Source: Escherichia phage vB_Eco_F22
Direction: 5' to 3' (one strand)
Sequence record: OP870143.1
DNA: 64,000 nt
Below the pieces are notes generated by a model. The model had not been told where the DNA came from. It saw nothing but the letters and a program-made list of their open reading frames with translations, and ran no database searches. The position numbers and the translations under genes were made by a program. Of this stretch, positions 5,387 to 15,385 are shown piece after piece (within the stretch, counting starts at the first letter, position 1; every line of letters begins with the position of its first letter).

Positions 5387-6205
5387 ATGTACTCATCAAT
5401 AGAACATCAGAAGCAGCTTGAAGTCCTATTCAATAAAAATCAATTACTGCCTCGCATGAGGAAGGAATTCGAGGACTCCAAAGAAATTGACTTTAAGGCA
5501 TTCGCTGCCTATTTAGAAATTGATTATAAGCTGCTCATTGATGCAATGGTGCAGATTGCCCTACATAAACGTGCTGACATCCAGACTATGATTGGCTCTC
5601 TCATGAGTCACTCAGATGATGCTCAGTACATCGCTGACTGTCTATATAAGATGGCAGAGAATGACTGCTTCAACTATGACCCTACCATCGACAAATTCGG
5701 TGTTATCTATGAGATTAGTGAAGATGTTCAGATGGAACTGGAAGCATTCCAGTATCCATTACCTATCGTAAGTGCTCCTAAGCCTGTTCTGTGTAACCGT
5801 GATACAGGTTACTACGAAAGCAGAGGCAGCATCATCCTCAAGAAGAATCATCATGAAATGGACGTCTGCCTTGACCACATCAACCGTATGAACAATCAAC
5901 GTCTCTGTATTAACTGGGACGTTGCCAACTATGTAAAAGACTCTCGTCCTAACATGGATAAACCCAAAGAGGGGGAAACCCGTCAGGACTATGAGAAACG
6001 TGTTAAAGCCTTTGAGAAGTACAGTCGTACTGCTAAGGAAGTAATGGAGTTAGTAACTCAAGAAGGCAATAACTTCTCACTAGCACATAAGTACGATAAG
6101 AGGGGCAGAACCTATGCCTGTGGATACCATATCAATTTTCAAGGGACTTCATATAACAAGGCAGTGATTGAATTTGCTGATAAGGAGCTGGTAAACGATG
6201 ATTAA
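5387..6205 (+). CDS. Phage RNA polymerase II small subunit (N4 gp15-like)
   Basis: 272 aa, immediately upstream of the catalytic subunit; size and position match the N4 RNAPII heterodimer. Confidence 0.5.
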   Translation: MYSSIEHQKQLEVLFNKNQLLPRMRKEFEDSKEIDFKAFAAYLEIDYKLLIDAMVQIALHKRADIQTMIGSLMSHSDDAQYIADCLYKMAENDCFNYDPTIDKFGVIYEISEDVQMELEAFQYPLPIVSAPKPVLCNRDTGYYESRGSIILKKNHHEMDVCLDHINRMNNQRLCINWDVANYVKDSRPNMDKPKEGETRQDYEKRVKAFEKYSRTAKEVMELVTQEGNNFSLAHKYDKRGRTYACGYHINFQGTSYNKAVIEFADKELVNDD

Positions 6206-6346
6206 TAAACGTGCAGTAGAAGACTTCTATGCTCATAGAGAGTTGGTACTGAAACGCATCAATGAAGCAATGAAACGTGAGGCTGAAGCTAAAGCTAAGC
6301 ATAACCGTAAATAAATCCAAATGCGAGCCAAGAGGACTAATCTCAA

Positions 6347-6589
6347 ATGAGTAAGCTATTAAAACTGTGGTTAATTAGCCAAAGTGAAAACCGTGGGCAT
6401 GACTCCTTTGATTCTGCTGTTGTAGCAGCCTACACAGAGGAAGAAGCTAAACAAATTAATCCAGACGGAGAATGGAAACTATACACCGCCTGGTGTTCTT
6501 CACCAGATAAAGTACATGTTGAGTACCTGGGTATTGCCACCGAAGGCGTGGAACCAGGAATAGTATTGTCATCATTTAATGCTGGTTAA
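6347..6589 (+). CDS. Hypothetical protein (80 aa)
   Basis: ORF between the two RNAP subunit genes. Confidence 0.4.
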   Translation: MSKLLKLWLISQSENRGHDSFDSAVVAAYTEEEAKQINPDGEWKLYTAWCSSPDKVHVEYLGIATEGVEPGIVLSSFNAG

Positions 6590-6643
6590 TCATCCAATAA
6601 GCAGGCTCTCCATAGTGGGGAGCCAAGAAGCGAGGAATATACA

Positions 6644-7861
6644 ATGCAACTGTTAACTGCCCGTGAATACCTGAAAGTAGATGTCGCTAACAACTATGGC
6701 TTAGATAAAAAGACATGGGATGAACGTATTAGCTGGTTCGATGAGAACGAAGCTAATCTGCTCAATCTGGTAGATGAAGCTGAAGAATCTGCACTGTTCT
6801 ATGCTGGTGTAAACGCATGGAAAGATATGAAAGCTGGTAAGCCTATTGGTTATGCCGTAGCTCTGGATGCTACATCATCTGGCTTACAGTTACTGGCTTG
6901 CCTGACTGGTGACCGTTCTGCTGCTGAACTGTGTAACGTAGTTAACTACATGGGCAAGAATGGTAAGCCATTACGTCGTGATGCTTATACAGTTATCTAT
7001 CATAAGATGCTGGACATCCTTGGTGAAGCATCTCGTATTAAACGTAGTGACACCAAGCAGGCAGTTATGACTGCATTCTATGGTTCAGAAGCTAAACCTA
7101 AAGAAGTATTCGGTGAAGGTATCCGTCTCAAGACTTTTGAGAATGTAATGGAAACTGTTGCTAGTGGACCTTGGGCATTGAACAAGTTCTTACTGCAATG
7201 TGGTAACCCAGACGCTAACCGTTATGTATGGGTATTGCCTGACAACTTCCATGCTGTCATTAAAGTTATGGTTCCTGAAGTACAGACTGTTAACTTCTTA
7301 GGTAAGCCATTCGACATCACTCGTATGGTCCAAGGTACTGAAGAGAAGACCCGTATGCTCTCTGCTAACATCACCCACTCTATTGATGGGATGGTAGTAC
7401 GTGAGATGCTGCGTCGTTGTAACTTCAACATGAACCAGGTGAACTATATTAAGTCCCTCTGTGAGGGAACCAGTGAATACATGGTTGGCTCTGATGATAA
7501 CTATGAAATGGTTAACACACTGTGGTCTAACTATGAGAAGTCGGGATTCCTGTCTACCCGTATCTTTGATTATCTGGACTCTGAAACAATTGCATTGGTT
7601 GATACAGATGTAATCATGGCTATGCTCAATACCATGCCTAAGAAACCATTCCCTGTAATGACCGTACACGACTGCTTCCGTTGTCATCCTAACTACGGTA
7701 ATGACCTGCGTCGTCAGTACAATCAGATTCTGTCTGACATTGCTAAGAGTGACCTACTGGGCTTCATCCTGTCTCAGGTACTGGGACAAGAGTTCTCTGC
7801 TGGTAAGCTGGATGACAGCCTTTGGCAGGACATCCTTGAAACAGATTATGCATTAAGTTAA
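6644..7861 (+). CDS. Phage RNA polymerase II catalytic subunit (T7-like single-subunit RNAP palm; N4 gp16-like)
   Basis: ALDATSSGLQ (motif A), RSDTKQAVMTAFYGSEAKPKEVFG (motif B, close to T7 RSVTKRSVMTLAYGSKEFG), TVHDCF (motif C); terminator at 7869. Confidence 0.8.
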   Translation: MQLLTAREYLKVDVANNYGLDKKTWDERISWFDENEANLLNLVDEAEESALFYAGVNAWKDMKAGKPIGYAVALDATSSGLQLLACLTGDRSAAELCNVVNYMGKNGKPLRRDAYTVIYHKMLDILGEASRIKRSDTKQAVMTAFYGSEAKPKEVFGEGIRLKTFENVMETVASGPWALNKFLLQCGNPDANRYVWVLPDNFHAVIKVMVPEVQTVNFLGKPFDITRMVQGTEEKTRMLSANITHSIDGMVVREMLRRCNFNMNQVNYIKSLCEGTSEYMVGSDDNYEMVNTLWSNYEKSGFLSTRIFDYLDSETIALVDTDVIMAMLNTMPKKPFPVMTVHDCFRCHPNYGNDLRRQYNQILSDIAKSDLLGFILSQVLGQEFSAGKLDDSLWQDILETDYALS

Positions 7862-7868
7862 TAAACTG

Positions 7869-7903
7869 GCCTCATACCTTCGGGTATGGGGCTTTTATTT
7901 TTT
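7869..7903 (+). terminator. Intrinsic terminator after the RNAPII catalytic subunit gene
   Basis: Hairpin GCCTCATACC-TTCG-GGTATGGGGC followed by TTTTATTTTTT. Confidence 0.75.
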
Positions 7904-7905
7904 GC

Positions 7906-8103
7906 TTGGAGGTAGTCAACATGCCAGACATCTATGATGTTATTACTAAAACCGTACTGATAGTTTTATCTGCTATTGTGATACTCACTATAGTTAACGC
8001 CCACAAATCCAAGTTTGCTTATTGCTACTATGGAGCATACTCTGCCGGATGTTTTGTATTAGCCGGTTGGATAGCTTACTGGATTTACCACATCAACAAC
8101 TAG
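7906..8103 (+). CDS. Small membrane protein (65 aa, two hydrophobic helices)
   Basis: ORF between two terminators. Confidence 0.4.
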   Translation: MEVVNMPDIYDVITKTVLIVLSAIVILTIVNAHKSKFAYCYYGAYSAGCFVLAGWIAYWIYHINN

Positions 8104-11262: not shown

Positions 11263-12438
11263 ATGAACCAGATACCTCAGCACACACTTAGTGATGAACA
11301 ACTCATGCGTGAGTATGACCGTATTCAGGCCAAAGCCTTTCTCGGACGTAGTGCAGCGTTTTTTGGTTCATTGCTGTGTAGTCTTAAGTTCTCATGGAAA
11401 CGTGAAGACTGTCCTACCGCATGTACTGATGGGATAGAACTGCATTTCAACCCAGACTTCTTTATCTGGATGTGTCCTGATGCAAGAGAAACAGTATTAA
11501 TGCACGAGCTATGGCATGTGGCATATCTACATGACATCCGTCGTGGAAGCCGTGACCCAGAAGTCTGGAACCAGGCTTGTGACCACTTCATTAACCTTCA
11601 GTTAGAAGAAGATGGTTACAAGTTCACTGGTATCGACGAAGGTATTTGTAAAGACCCTCAATATAAAGGATGGGTCGAAGAAGACATCTACGATGACCTG
11701 ATGAAGAACCCTCAGAAAAGGCAGAAGCCGTCAGGGGGTGCTGGAGCAGGTCTTGCTGGCGACATGAAATCCCCCACTTCGGGACAGTCCCAGGGTGCTG
11801 TCGTCAATAACGTAGTACGTGCAATGCAAAGCCAGAAGATGGCTGGTGGACAGATGCCTGGTAAAGGTGCTGGTCGTATGGAAGAGGTCATTACCCAATT
11901 CCTTAAACCAGTGGTTCCTTGGCAGGAAGTTCTGATGAACTTCTTTACCGACATTGATGACACACATTATACGTGGGCCAGACCTAATCGTCGTTACACT
12001 GACATCTATCTACCTTCACTGGAAGATGATGAAGGACGTCTACGTCACTTAGCCTACTTTGAGGATGTATCTGGTTCCATCAGTAGTGCTGACTCTCTGC
12101 GTTTTAACTCAGAGGTTGCCTACGTTAAGAGCCAGTTCAATCCTAAGAAGATGTCCCTAATTACCTTCGACGATATTATCCAGGAAGAAATAGACATCAC
12201 TGAAGAAGATACTTTTGAAGAGATTAAGATTACAGGTCGTGGTGGTACAAACCTTGAACCAGTACGCGAATGGATTATTAAGAATAAGCCAACCGCTGCA
12301 ATCATATTCTCCGATATGTATGTTCGTCCAATGGAAGAATTGCCATTTGATATTTCCATCATCTGGTGTGTTCTGAATAATCCCAATGCTACCGTACCTT
12401 TTGGGGAGGTAGTTCATATCCCTAAAGGAATGAAATAA
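11263..12438 (+). CDS. VWA-domain protein with N-terminal HExxH metallopeptidase-like region (DUF2201-like partner of the MoxR ATPase)
   Basis: HELWHVAYLH motif; gene pairing with upstream AAA+ ATPase; 391 aa. Confidence 0.5.
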   Translation: MNQIPQHTLSDEQLMREYDRIQAKAFLGRSAAFFGSLLCSLKFSWKREDCPTACTDGIELHFNPDFFIWMCPDARETVLMHELWHVAYLHDIRRGSRDPEVWNQACDHFINLQLEEDGYKFTGIDEGICKDPQYKGWVEEDIYDDLMKNPQKRQKPSGGAGAGLAGDMKSPTSGQSQGAVVNNVVRAMQSQKMAGGQMPGKGAGRMEEVITQFLKPVVPWQEVLMNFFTDIDDTHYTWARPNRRYTDIYLPSLEDDEGRLRHLAYFEDVSGSISSADSLRFNSEVAYVKSQFNPKKMSLITFDDIIQEEIDITEEDTFEEIKITGRGGTNLEPVREWIIKNKPTAAIIFSDMYVRPMEELPFDISIIWCVLNNPNATVPFGEVVHIPKGMK

Positions 12439-12944
12439 TGGTTGTTAATGGTAATTCTCTATATCGCTCATCTCAGTTGCTGGATGTTCCAGACCATAAG
12501 GTATCTGAACATGGTGTAAGCTATGGATTAGGTGAAGCTGGCTACGATATTCGTATCAAACAGGACATTACCTTCTATCACTTATTTGGGTTGATTCCAA
12601 TGGTGAAGGTCGTTGATGGAAATCAAGTATCACGCCATTTCGGTAAGTTCACATTGGCTTCAGCAATTGAGAAGTTCAACATGTCCCCTTCCTGTGTAGC
12701 TATCGTTCACGATAAGTCTACATGGGCAAGACGTGCATTATCAGTGTTCAATACCGTAATAGAACCAGGATGGAAAGGGTATTTGACTCTTGAACTGGTC
12801 TATCATGGTCGTAAGAAACTACATATCCCGGCTGGTGCTGGGATAGCTCAAGTATTATTTCATCTGGTTCAGGAACCTGCTAATTACAACGGCAAGTATC
12901 AGAACCAGGAAAATCAACCAGTAGCTGCAAGAAGCAGTAAATAA
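12438..12944 (+). CDS. dcd: dCTP deaminase / dUTPase-superfamily enzyme
   Basis: GEAGYDIRI, KSTWARRAL, EPGWKGYLTLEL and GAGIAQVLFH motifs typical of the Dcd family. Confidence 0.65.
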   Translation: MVVNGNSLYRSSQLLDVPDHKVSEHGVSYGLGEAGYDIRIKQDITFYHLFGLIPMVKVVDGNQVSRHFGKFTLASAIEKFNMSPSCVAIVHDKSTWARRALSVFNTVIEPGWKGYLTLELVYHGRKKLHIPAGAGIAQVLFHLVQEPANYNGKYQNQENQPVAARSSK

Positions 12945-12953
12945 GGAAAACTC

Positions 12954-13163
12954 ATGTCAGTATTTCAAGTAACTCATGCAACCTCAGATGTACGTTTAAC
13001 CATTAATGCTGCAAATGTAGTTGCAGTGGAACAGATTCCACTGTCTGATTGCGCTCGTATTACACTTGTAAATGAAGGTACTTTGGATACCAAAGAAAGC
13101 TATCGTTCAGTACGTAATTACCTGAAGAAAGCTCTTGCTCCTGCAAGCAAAGATGCTGAGTAA
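12954..13163 (+). CDS. Hypothetical protein (69 aa)
   Basis: ORF followed by terminator-like hairpin. Confidence 0.45.
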   Translation: MSVFQVTHATSDVRLTINAANVVAVEQIPLSDCARITLVNEGTLDTKESYRSVRNYLKKALAPASKDAE

Positions 13164-13236
13164 GTAGCTGCCTAAATAGCCCAGCATAGTTGGGCTATTT
13201 GTGAAGAAACTAACTCAACCCCACATAGGAACTATC

Positions 13237-13497
13237 ATGGAATCTTTAGCAGCAATCCTTATTCTGTTATTTGCACTAGCTGTATACCTTATCCCTACCA
13301 TTATTGCTTTTGCACGGGGCCATGCCTCTAAGTGGGGAATTGGTGTACTCAACATCGTATTAGGCTGGTCTTTGGTCTTCTGGGTAGTAGCACTGATTTG
13401 GTCACTGTCTAATAAAGGACAGTCTCAGACTACAATCGTTAACGTTGGTAGTGGGAACCAATACAACGTGTCTCAAACGAGCCAGTCTGATAAGTAA
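13237..13497 (+). CDS. Small membrane protein resembling the superinfection-immunity (Imm-like) family; track start 13201 is GTG
   Basis: LIPTIIAFARGHASKWGIGVLNIVLGWSLVFWVVALIWSL resembles the Imm_superinfect signature; ATG 13237 has AGGA RBS. Confidence 0.5.
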   Translation: MESLAAILILLFALAVYLIPTIIAFARGHASKWGIGVLNIVLGWSLVFWVVALIWSLSNKGQSQTTIVNVGSGNQYNVSQTSQSDK

Positions 13498-13571
13498 CTA
13501 ACCTAAGCATCATTGCATAGTGGTGCTTGTGGAAGTTACTTTCAGCTCATTGCTTATCCATCTCCTAATCC

Positions 13572-13599
13572 AAGCCCACCTAACCCGTGGGCTTTTTTA
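13572..13599 (+). terminator. Intrinsic terminator
   Basis: Hairpin AAGCCCAC-CTAACCC-GTGGGCTT followed by TTTTTAA. Confidence 0.65.
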
Positions 13600-13614
13600 A
13601 TTACAGGTACTCTT

Positions 13615-13998
13615 ATGTCAAACAGACAAAATGGTAAGTCTATCTTATATGGACTGGACTTAAGTAAACTGGAACAAACTGCAATGCTTACTTTAGGTAA
13701 AACTATACATGACCAAGTAGAGAATGAAATAGAATCAGATGTTTATGCAGCAATGCAAGCTGCTATTCTGAAAGGATGGACTAGTAGATCATTTAATGTT
13801 TTCCCATACATCCCTCCTGAACCTCATCTGAAATCTAAGGTAGACCGTATCATAGATAAGTTCTGGCTTAGTCCTTGCTATGACGAAATGCATCTTTACC
13901 TGGCTCAAATACAAAAGAATCCACGTACTAAGGATTTGTTCAAAGGCAAGAGCACTACCCATCATTACCCTTGGTATAGAAGAGGTAGTAAATACTAA
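13615..13998 (+). CDS. Hypothetical protein (track ORF 13513..13998, trimmed to the first Met after the terminator hairpin)
   Basis: ORF; hairpin plus T-run at 13572..13599 sits inside the longer track ORF. Confidence 0.4.
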   Translation: MSNRQNGKSILYGLDLSKLEQTAMLTLGKTIHDQVENEIESDVYAAMQAAILKGWTSRSFNVFPYIPPEPHLKSKVDRIIDKFWLSPCYDEMHLYLAQIQKNPRTKDLFKGKSTTHHYPWYRRGSKY

Positions 13999-14441
13999 TG
14001 CGTATCCCATTCCTAAGAAAAAGGGAACGAAATCCTGTTCTTTATAATAAAGGCATAGAGGATGAGTACGAACTTAACCGTAAGGCCCGTTCCTACGCAG
14101 CAAAATTATTAATGGGGGCTACCAACCCTGATAGATTACTGGACTTTGTTTTCGAACAAGTCTTTATCATATACAGCTTAGCTATGTCTGCTGGTTCACA
14201 AGAAGTAAGTGATAAGGCAAGAGATGCTCTCTGTATGCTCCGTAAAGAGTATGAAGCCCTCATGTATGAAGACTTGTACTCCTTTAAAAAAGAAACCGCT
14301 GTAGCGTGTTCTGTGGCTCTTACTGAAGGTATAGCAGTATTACAGGAACTACCACGTAGTGAGTTTAAACTGGTATATGTTCAGGCCAAGAGGATTACAG
14401 AAAGCCGTAGTGGTATTACCAACTATCTAAGGTCATTCTAA
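13998..14441 (+). CDS. Hypothetical protein (147 aa)
   Basis: ORF with ATGA-type overlaps on both sides. Confidence 0.5.
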   Translation: MRIPFLRKRERNPVLYNKGIEDEYELNRKARSYAAKLLMGATNPDRLLDFVFEQVFIIYSLAMSAGSQEVSDKARDALCMLRKEYEALMYEDLYSFKKETAVACSVALTEGIAVLQELPRSEFKLVYVQAKRITESRSGITNYLRSF

Positions 14442-15385
14442 TGATTAAGGCAACTGTCATTGCAGATTCCGTTCATCATGCAACGGGTACTCGTATTACT
14501 ACCTTTGAATTGGTCTATCCCCGATTCATTCACAGTGAGTTTATGACCCACCGTGTATTCAACCGAAATGCTTCAAGTAGTCGTGCTATCCCTACTTCTA
14601 AGTTCATCGAACAAGTTCGTAATGAACCAGTGATGCCAAGTCACTGGGGCAAGAACCAGAAGGGTATGCAGGCATTTGAGGAACTGTCCGAAGACCAACG
14701 TAGTGATGCAATCTTTATCTGGAACCAGGCTGCGTCAAGTGCTGCTACCTATGCGGAAATGCTTCGTCGTGGACAAGTTCATAAGCAGATTGTTAACCGT
14801 ATTCTGGAACCATTCACACATATCCGTGTAGTGGTAACTTCAACTAGCTGGGCTAATTTCTATGGCTTACGTGACCATGAAGATGCCCAACCAGAGATTC
14901 GTGAATTAGCTCAAGCAATGCGTAAGGCTCATAATGAAAGCACTCCAAGAGCACTCCCACAAGGGGAATGGCATTTACCGTATATTGCTCATATTGATCG
15001 TGTCGGGGCTTATAATTACTGCAAACATCAGCGAATTACTCGTGATGAACCAAGTAGTGAAGAAGTGTATGGCTTACTTCTTAAGGTAAGTGCTGCTCGT
15101 TGTGCTCGTGCTTCTTACAACAATTTTGAAGGCCGTCCTTCTACTATTGAAGAAGACTTAGGATTGTTTGCTAAGTTAGTAGAGAACCAACCTATTCATG
15201 CATCCCCTACAGAACACCAGGCAACTCCTATGCTGTTCGGTGATAAGTTCATTAACAACCAGAACCCATTAACCTGGGAACAGGGTGTTACTTCAATGGA
15301 TCGTGAAGGTAATCTGTATTCAGGTAACCTGTTAGATTTCATCCAATTCCGTAAACTAATCCCCGGAGAAACAATTACAGAATGA
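14441..15385 (+). CDS. thyX: Flavin-dependent thymidylate synthase ThyX-like
   Basis: THRVFNRNASSS fits the ThyX RHRx7S signature with one substitution; 314 aa; adjacent to dCTP deaminase. Confidence 0.5.
   Translation: MIKATVIADSVHHATGTRITTFELVYPRFIHSEFMTHRVFNRNASSSRAIPTSKFIEQVRNEPVMPSHWGKNQKGMQAFEELSEDQRSDAIFIWNQAASSAATYAEMLRRGQVHKQIVNRILEPFTHIRVVVTSTSWANFYGLRDHEDAQPEIRELAQAMRKAHNESTPRALPQGEWHLPYIAHIDRVGAYNYCKHQRITRDEPSSEEVYGLLLKVSAARCARASYNNFEGRPSTIEEDLGLFAKLVENQPIHASPTEHQATPMLFGDKFINNQNPLTWEQGVTSMDREGNLYSGNLLDFIQFRKLIPGETITE

Follow-up and report, generated by a model that had tools for sequence, protein, structure and literature searches.

An Imm-Family Membrane Protein Gene in an N4-like Coliphage and Its Proposed Role in Superinfection Exclusion

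Introduction

Why does a virulent N4-like coliphage carry what looks like a superinfection immunity gene, and what might its product do? The gene lies about 13 kb into the genome of Escherichia phage vB_Eco_F22, of which a stretch of 64,000 nucleotides was analysed (sequence record OP870143.1; hereafter, the window). The phage is a Gamaleyavirus and belongs to the G7C-like, N4-like podoviruses within the Schitoviridae. A first, sequence-only reading of the locus had proposed a small membrane protein of the Imm type, acting in exclusion in an otherwise lytic phage and encoded by an independent unit between two terminators.

The comparison that such a proposal calls up is with Imm of T4. Superinfection exclusion in T4 is conferred by Imm together with Spackle (PMC7677548), and according to the note in the T4 record, a membrane change leaves the superinfecting DNA in the periplasm (NC_000866). 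Mutation of imm in T4 also partly impairs two further traits, resistance to lysis from without and the maintenance of lysis inhibition; how Imm acts at the molecular level is unresolved (PMC6832632). The functional statements made here about T4 Imm rest on these three sources. A literature search found no experimental work on the Imm homologue of N4-like phages.

The Gene and Its Family

The imm-like coding sequence (13237-13497, + strand) begins with an ATG at 13237-13239 and ends with a stop codon whose last base is 13497, as read from the sequence and from the list of open reading frames. The product of 86 amino acids is MESLAAILILLFALAVYLIPTIIAFARGHASKWGIGVLNIVLGWSLVFWVVALIWSLSNKGQSQTTIVNVGSGNQYNVSQTSQSDK. 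The coordinates first given for the gene and its peptide were exact, and the hydrophobic core quoted at that time, LIPTIIAFARGHASKWGIGVLNIVLGWSLVFWVVALIWSL, lies inside this product. A Shine-Dalgarno-like AGGA can be read six nucleotides before the ATG (13227-13230, + strand) and shows no variation across 10 relatives. The frame in the mechanical list of open reading frames runs longer, to a GTG at 13201; this was rejected as the start because it lies inside a hairpin, lacks a ribosome-binding site, and is neither used nor annotated as a start in any relative.

Does the protein belong to the Imm family? The suggested resemblance was borne out by a search with Pfam, which was clearly positive: PF14373 (Imm_superinfect) matches the window protein with 61.6 bits (E 6.6e-17) against a gathering cut-off of 27.9 bits, and the whole profile is covered (positions 1-42 of 42), at codons 16-57 (13282-13407, + strand). 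T4 Imm, the prototype of PF14373 (gene imm, NP_049660, taken from NC_000866), reaches 58.2 bits with that model. PHROG 1039, 'immunity to superinfection', also matches the window protein, with an E-value of 2.1e-33. In a BLASTP comparison, the window protein and T4 Imm share 32% identity and 57% positives over 69 amino acids (E 2e-10), in an alignment that begins at residue 1 of both proteins. Y17, P20, R27, I35, I54, and W55 are invariant in an alignment of 16 sequences that includes T4 Imm, and the window protein has the signature residues Y-x-x-P, the R-G turn, G-I, N/S-x-x-x-G/N-W, and I-W. We regard membership of the T4 Imm family as virtually certain.

Other collections gave little. NCBIfam returned no significant match to the window protein, PADLOC, which has no model for it, returned none, and a sequence search of the PDB found no solved structure of a relative. 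The sole PDB match, the de novo designed helical protein 8erw, involves 26 hydrophobic residues and was treated as compositional.

Predicted Architecture

What kind of membrane protein does the gene encode? Hydropathy and structure modelling predict a two-helix membrane hairpin with a short basic turn and a polar, variable tail. In this layout and in its length it agrees with stand-alone members of the family, which have about 60-90 amino acids. The first hydrophobic helix (TM1) is predicted at codons 3-26 (13243-13314, + strand) from AlphaFold2 and hydropathy, with Kyte-Doolittle means over 19-residue windows that reach 2.79. The second (TM2) is predicted at codons 33-57 (13333-13407, + strand) from a Kyte-Doolittle mean of 2.26 and from AlphaFold2; it bears an N-x-x-x-G-W...W...I-W motif, and I35, N39, G43, W44, W49, I54, and W55 are invariant or nearly so. 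The AlphaFold2 model, built from 28 homologues, is of moderate confidence (pLDDT 66.5) and has helices at residues 2-27 and 32-63, separated by a four-residue break and followed by a disordered tail (pLDDT <50 at residues 68-86).

The helices are joined by a basic turn, RGHASK, at codons 27-32 (13315-13332, + strand), which was delimited by conservation, charge, and the break in the model. R27 is invariant, while G28, H29, and S31 vary little or not at all. The turn is the sole cluster of positive charge in the protein (R27, H29, and K32), and the positive-inside rule would therefore place it in the cytoplasm, with both termini in the periplasm.

The C-terminal tail (codons 58-86; 13408-13494, + strand) is polar, rich in S, N, Q, and T, and predicted to be disordered and periplasmic. 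It varies among relatives. Gamaleyaviruses have two tail alleles, one giving a protein of 86 amino acids that ends in ...QSQTTIVNVGSGNQYNVSQTSQSDK and the other a protein of 80 amino acids that ends in ...QNQVTNVTVVQTNGGSKAE; the copy in phage Bp4 has a 1-nt deletion that leads to a frameshifted product of 67 amino acids. The tail of phage nithesis is an apparent hybrid of the two alleles. There is also a short stretch that looks prone to form a beta strand in both tail alleles and in the tail of T4 Imm (..QVIIIREKE).

Distribution and Selection

Is the gene new? Over 95% of their length, the first 25 kb of the window align with Escherichia phage E20 at 97.5% identity, and the product of the E20 gene E20_32 (WAQ79319.1, 'membrane immunity protein') is 100% identical to the window protein. 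Since an identical protein had already been deposited and named, the finding itself was already known; among G7C-like phages, imm is recognised as an accessory gene. The Bp4 record names its own copy 'gp27.1; similar to Imm ... of phage JS98', and equivalent annotations are found in IME11, ECBP1, SP5M, nithesis, ST4, and 24-32N.

A search of 5.8 billion clustered proteins gave 85 close relatives, all of which contain PF14373. Most of these are encoded on contigs of about 70-73 kb, the length expected of such genomes, and essentially all the contigs of Gamaleyavirus size that were recovered have retained imm. Over codons 1-62, ten phages have a mean dS of 0.245 and a mean dN of 0.024. The resulting dN/dS of about 0.10 indicates a functional gene under purifying selection.

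The family extends well beyond the genus and is present in 310 phage records by tblastn. Among the records inspected, homologues were found in virulent phages of the Straboviridae, Chaseviridae, Obolenskvirus, and Schitoviridae, and some siphoviruses were also among them. The window protein is 61% identical to the homologue of the Chaseviridae phage Mangalitsa, about 62-64% identical to those of Acinetobacter myoviruses of the genus Obolenskvirus, and 47-52% identical to those of T4-like Klebsiella and Citrobacter phages. An exhaustive phmmer search (E up to 0.001) found 8,265 cluster representatives at 50% identity, and many of these family members have additional N- or C-terminal regions.

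Does an exclusion function sit oddly in an otherwise lytic phage, as had been implied? T4 is strictly lytic. Both this prototype and the homologue-bearing phages that were inspected are virulent, and the supposed tension disappears.

Genome Context and Comparison with N4

Where in the genome is imm found? It lies in a + strand pre-replicative block that contains nucleotide-metabolism genes (dCTP deaminase and ThyX), outside the leftmost early region. On either side lie homologues of N4 gp25 (vWA), gp26 (dCTP deaminase), gp27, gp28, gp29, and gp30 (ThyX). The upstream neighbour, the gp27 homologue (12954-13163, + strand), is 33% identical to its N4 counterpart over 69 amino acids (BLASTP, E 4e-7), and the downstream neighbour, the gp28 homologue (13615-13998, + strand), is 38% identical over 68 amino acids (BLASTP, E 1e-12). 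The start of the gp28 homologue is the ATG at 13615, which is conserved, lies past the terminator described below, and is annotated in relatives. The list of open reading frames has a longer form (13513-13998) with a TTG start at 13513; this form, which would cross both a hairpin and the terminator, was rejected. The public records of ST4 and UE-S5a annotate the gp28 homologue in its long form, with the TTG start.

Was imm gained in this lineage? The gap between gp27 and gp28 of N4 is only 113 nt and has no imm, and a six-frame search of the whole N4 genome with a family HMM built here found no Imm-like open reading frame (best E 0.33). Thus, imm is an accessory insertion in the Gamaleyavirus lineage.

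Some further features of the region should be recorded. The last coding bases of the gp27 homologue upstream of GCTGAGTAA are unrelated in the window and in E20, where the gene occupies 2242-2427 of the E20 excerpt, and the two proteins have 69 and 61 amino acids, respectively. E20 aligns to only 89% of window positions 12400-14500, as two pieces. A local mosaic breakpoint, at the 3' end of the gp27 homologue, adjoins imm. In both T4 and the window, imm is found beside pyrimidine-metabolism genes (gene 42, encoding dCMP hydroxymethylase, in T4, at 5480-6625 of the T4 excerpt; dCTP deaminase and ThyX, 12438-15385, in the window), which is possibly a coincidence. At the left end of the window, the alignment of the closest relatives starts only at about position 223-293; the first 290 or so bases therefore lie outside the start of those records, at a genome end or in a terminal repeat region.

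Hairpins, Terminators, and Transcription

Is imm an independent small unit between two terminators, as had been proposed? The proposal holds downstream of the gene, where the terminator scan found a canonical intrinsic terminator at 13572-13603 (+ strand), consisting of a stem-loop (13572-13594) and a T-run. The stem of 8 bp includes five G-C pairs, the loop has 7 nt, and the sequence that follows is TTTTAATT. This element carries a terminator annotation in SP5M and has a conserved counterpart in N4, GCCCAC-tttat-GTGGGC-TTTTTTAATTA. Upstream of the gene the proposal is not confirmed. There is a hairpin at 13173-13201 (+ strand; 13 pairs, with the loop within GCATAG) that is among the strongest on the + strand (-17.4 kcal/mol, z -5.6), and its stem is conserved across 10 relatives, with substitutions in the loop. 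However, it fails the terminator scan, with no proper T-run and the tail TGTGAAG.

The independent unit itself remains a proposal. It is consistent with the downstream terminator and with the insertion of imm between the gp27 and gp28 homologues, but a scan of the + strand from 12400 to 14100 found no sigma-70-like promoter, and the spacing between the upstream hairpin and the imm ATG is only 35 nt. To speak of an autonomous transcription unit is therefore an overstatement. It is possible that imm is transcribed by read-through from upstream or from a promoter used by phage RNAPII. Very early expression of imm is not evident, given its position about 13 kb in and the lack of a sigma-70-like promoter. 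Apart from these two overstated points, both the observation and the interpretation of the sequence-only reading are supported.

A third hairpin, absent from that reading, lies near imm at 13504-13529 (+ strand), 7 nt past the stop codon, with the loop TTGCATAG and the tail TGGAAGTT. In IME11 and 24-32N another stem sequence occupies the same place, with pairing kept, and in ST4 a G.T pair has become A-T. This hairpin is collinear with the single hairpin in the gp27-gp28 spacer of N4. A hairpin scan of the whole window found that the usual + strand terminators consist of a hairpin and then a T-run; the hairpins on either side of imm are unlike that. These two have parts in common, namely the 5' flank CCTAA, the loop GCATAG, and the 3' flank TTGTG(G)AAG, whereas their stems differ. 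Copies of a hairpin element bracket imm, at window positions 13169-13212 and 13500-13545. N4 has one such element in its imm-less spacer (2554-2600 of the N4 excerpt), collinear with the downstream copy, the terminator, and the start of gp28.

Could the hairpin motif be a general promoter or terminator signal? This was rejected, as there is no enrichment elsewhere in the window. TTDTGGAARTT with one mismatch allowed has 7 matches in the window against 9.1 expected, and the combined loop-plus-flank pattern is matched by the hairpin just past imm alone. GCATAG is mildly over-represented (52 occurrences against 34 expected), and the occurrences are spread out and favour one strand, the pattern expected of a coding-strand effect. 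The hairpin element is local, because its flank and loop motifs are not enriched elsewhere in the window. A search of Rfam with 12900-13700 gave no match above threshold; Trp_leader at 13508-13600 (19.8 bits against a gathering cut-off of 41; E 0.28) was rejected and is regarded as a chance outcome of the layout, two hairpins plus a terminator.

The paired hairpin elements around imm and the single copy in N4 suggest a cassette-type insertion, and it looks as if imm came in along with a single copy of a structured spacer element. Promoter-stem-loop cassettes have been proposed in T4-type phages, and if imm did arrive as a cassette, the hairpin could be a comparable recombination or regulatory module. 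The element could serve as an attenuator, a stabiliser of RNA 3' ends, a recombination site, or a hairpin-type middle promoter. The last of these has been reported in the N4-like phage LUZ7 (PMC9163698). A linked pair of proposals, that imm came into Gamaleyavirus as a hairpin-bounded cassette and that its product excludes N4-like phages themselves, is speculative and on the whole improbable.

Proposed Function

What does the protein do in the infected cell? By homology to T4 Imm, it is on balance probably an inner-membrane helical hairpin that blocks the transfer of DNA from secondary phages. In the proposed sequence of events, imm would most likely be expressed from the pre-replicative + strand block of the virulent phage. 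The Imm-like protein would insert into the host cytoplasmic membrane in the predicted orientation, with the turn in the cytoplasm and the ends in the periplasm. Like T4 Imm, it may then stop the DNA of secondary phages from crossing the inner membrane of the infected cell. Competitors would be excluded as a result, and envelope damage from secondary adsorption would be limited. We infer the location and orientation in the membrane, the timing of expression, and both the mechanism and the targets of exclusion. One consideration bears on exclusion of the phage's own kind. In N4-like podoviruses, DNA delivery relies on an ejectosome with a giant virion RNA polymerase, unlike the tail tube of T4, so that what holds for T4 may not apply to such exclusion.

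Could the protein instead act mainly on the envelope or on lysis timing? Its main role would then be to guard against damage from secondary adsorption and so to sustain lysis inhibition, and not to block DNA entry. Lysis inhibition by N4 is tied to superinfection, and all N4 rapid-lysis mutations so far are in membrane proteins (bioRxiv 10.1101/2025.11.12.688109); genes like rIIA and rIIB are present in the window phage. However, N4, the source of that lysis inhibition, has no Imm-family open reading frame in six frames, so the family cannot be required for lysis inhibition of the N4 type, and imm is far from the lysis cassette. This role is unlikely.

A second alternative keeps the block of DNA entry but changes its targets: the protein would exclude other phages, for example T-even-type myoviruses in the gut niche, and leave N4-like entry unaffected. 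The Imm-sensitive entry step is established in T-even-type myoviruses. The closest homologues outside the genus, in Mangalitsa, the Obolenskvirus phages, and the T4-like Klebsiella and Citrobacter phages, are also those of myoviruses, and the accessory nature of imm, together with its absence from N4, suggests horizontal acquisition. By contrast, the spread of the family over phage morphotypes argues for a generic membrane step, at which the phage's own kind would also be affected. Targets restricted in this way seem quite unlikely.

It is very improbable that the family name misleads here and that the product is a holin-like or unrelated small membrane protein, or an inconsequential passenger: Imm has been likened to a holin in molecular terms (PMC6832632) and almost all members of this very large family are uncharacterised, but no holin family was matched in Pfam or PHROGs, imm lies among nucleotide-metabolism genes and outside the lysis module (N4 gp60-63, on the other strand), and purifying selection and genus-wide retention speak against a passenger.

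Significance

Is the locus of wider interest? Past the correct annotation of the gene, its importance is small. It has some practical bearing on phage cocktails, in which a phage that makes an Imm-type exclusion protein could hinder others given alongside it. Because the ejection machinery of N4-like phages is very different from that of T4, a podovirus homologue would be a useful comparator for asking whether Imm targets the phage or a membrane step of the host. If N4-like phages are themselves excluded, the Imm family would act on a generic step of DNA entry at the inner membrane, and not on the T4 tail tube.

Comparison with Known Systems

How close is the gene to the systems that are already known? 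The nearest, next to the identical protein of E20, are its orthologues in Bp4 (gp27.1), IME11, ECBP1, SP5M, St11Ph5, and Moo19. These are 78-98% identical to the window protein and also lie between gp27 and gp28 homologues, with the same flanking hairpins. They differ from it mainly in the C-terminal tail, where the 86- and 80-amino acid alleles and the 67-amino acid Bp4 product diverge. In the N4 genome, gp18 ('superinfection exclusion, similar to P22 gp17') is annotated with an exclusion function in the same phage family, but it belongs to an unrelated protein family and is found at another locus (7668-7982 of the N4 excerpt).

The comparison with T4 Imm shows a common design in different surroundings. 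The two proteins are of similar length (86 amino acids in the window phage and 83 in T4) and both start with ME(S/T)L. Each has a pair of hydrophobic helices with an intervening turn that begins R-G, each ends in a short polar C-terminal tail, and the Y..P, G-I, W, and I-W positions are common to the two. Both genes are carried by strictly lytic coliphages. By contrast, identity between the proteins is only 32%, the genome contexts of the two imm genes are not homologous, and the window phage, as an N4-like podovirus, has a different DNA-delivery machine.
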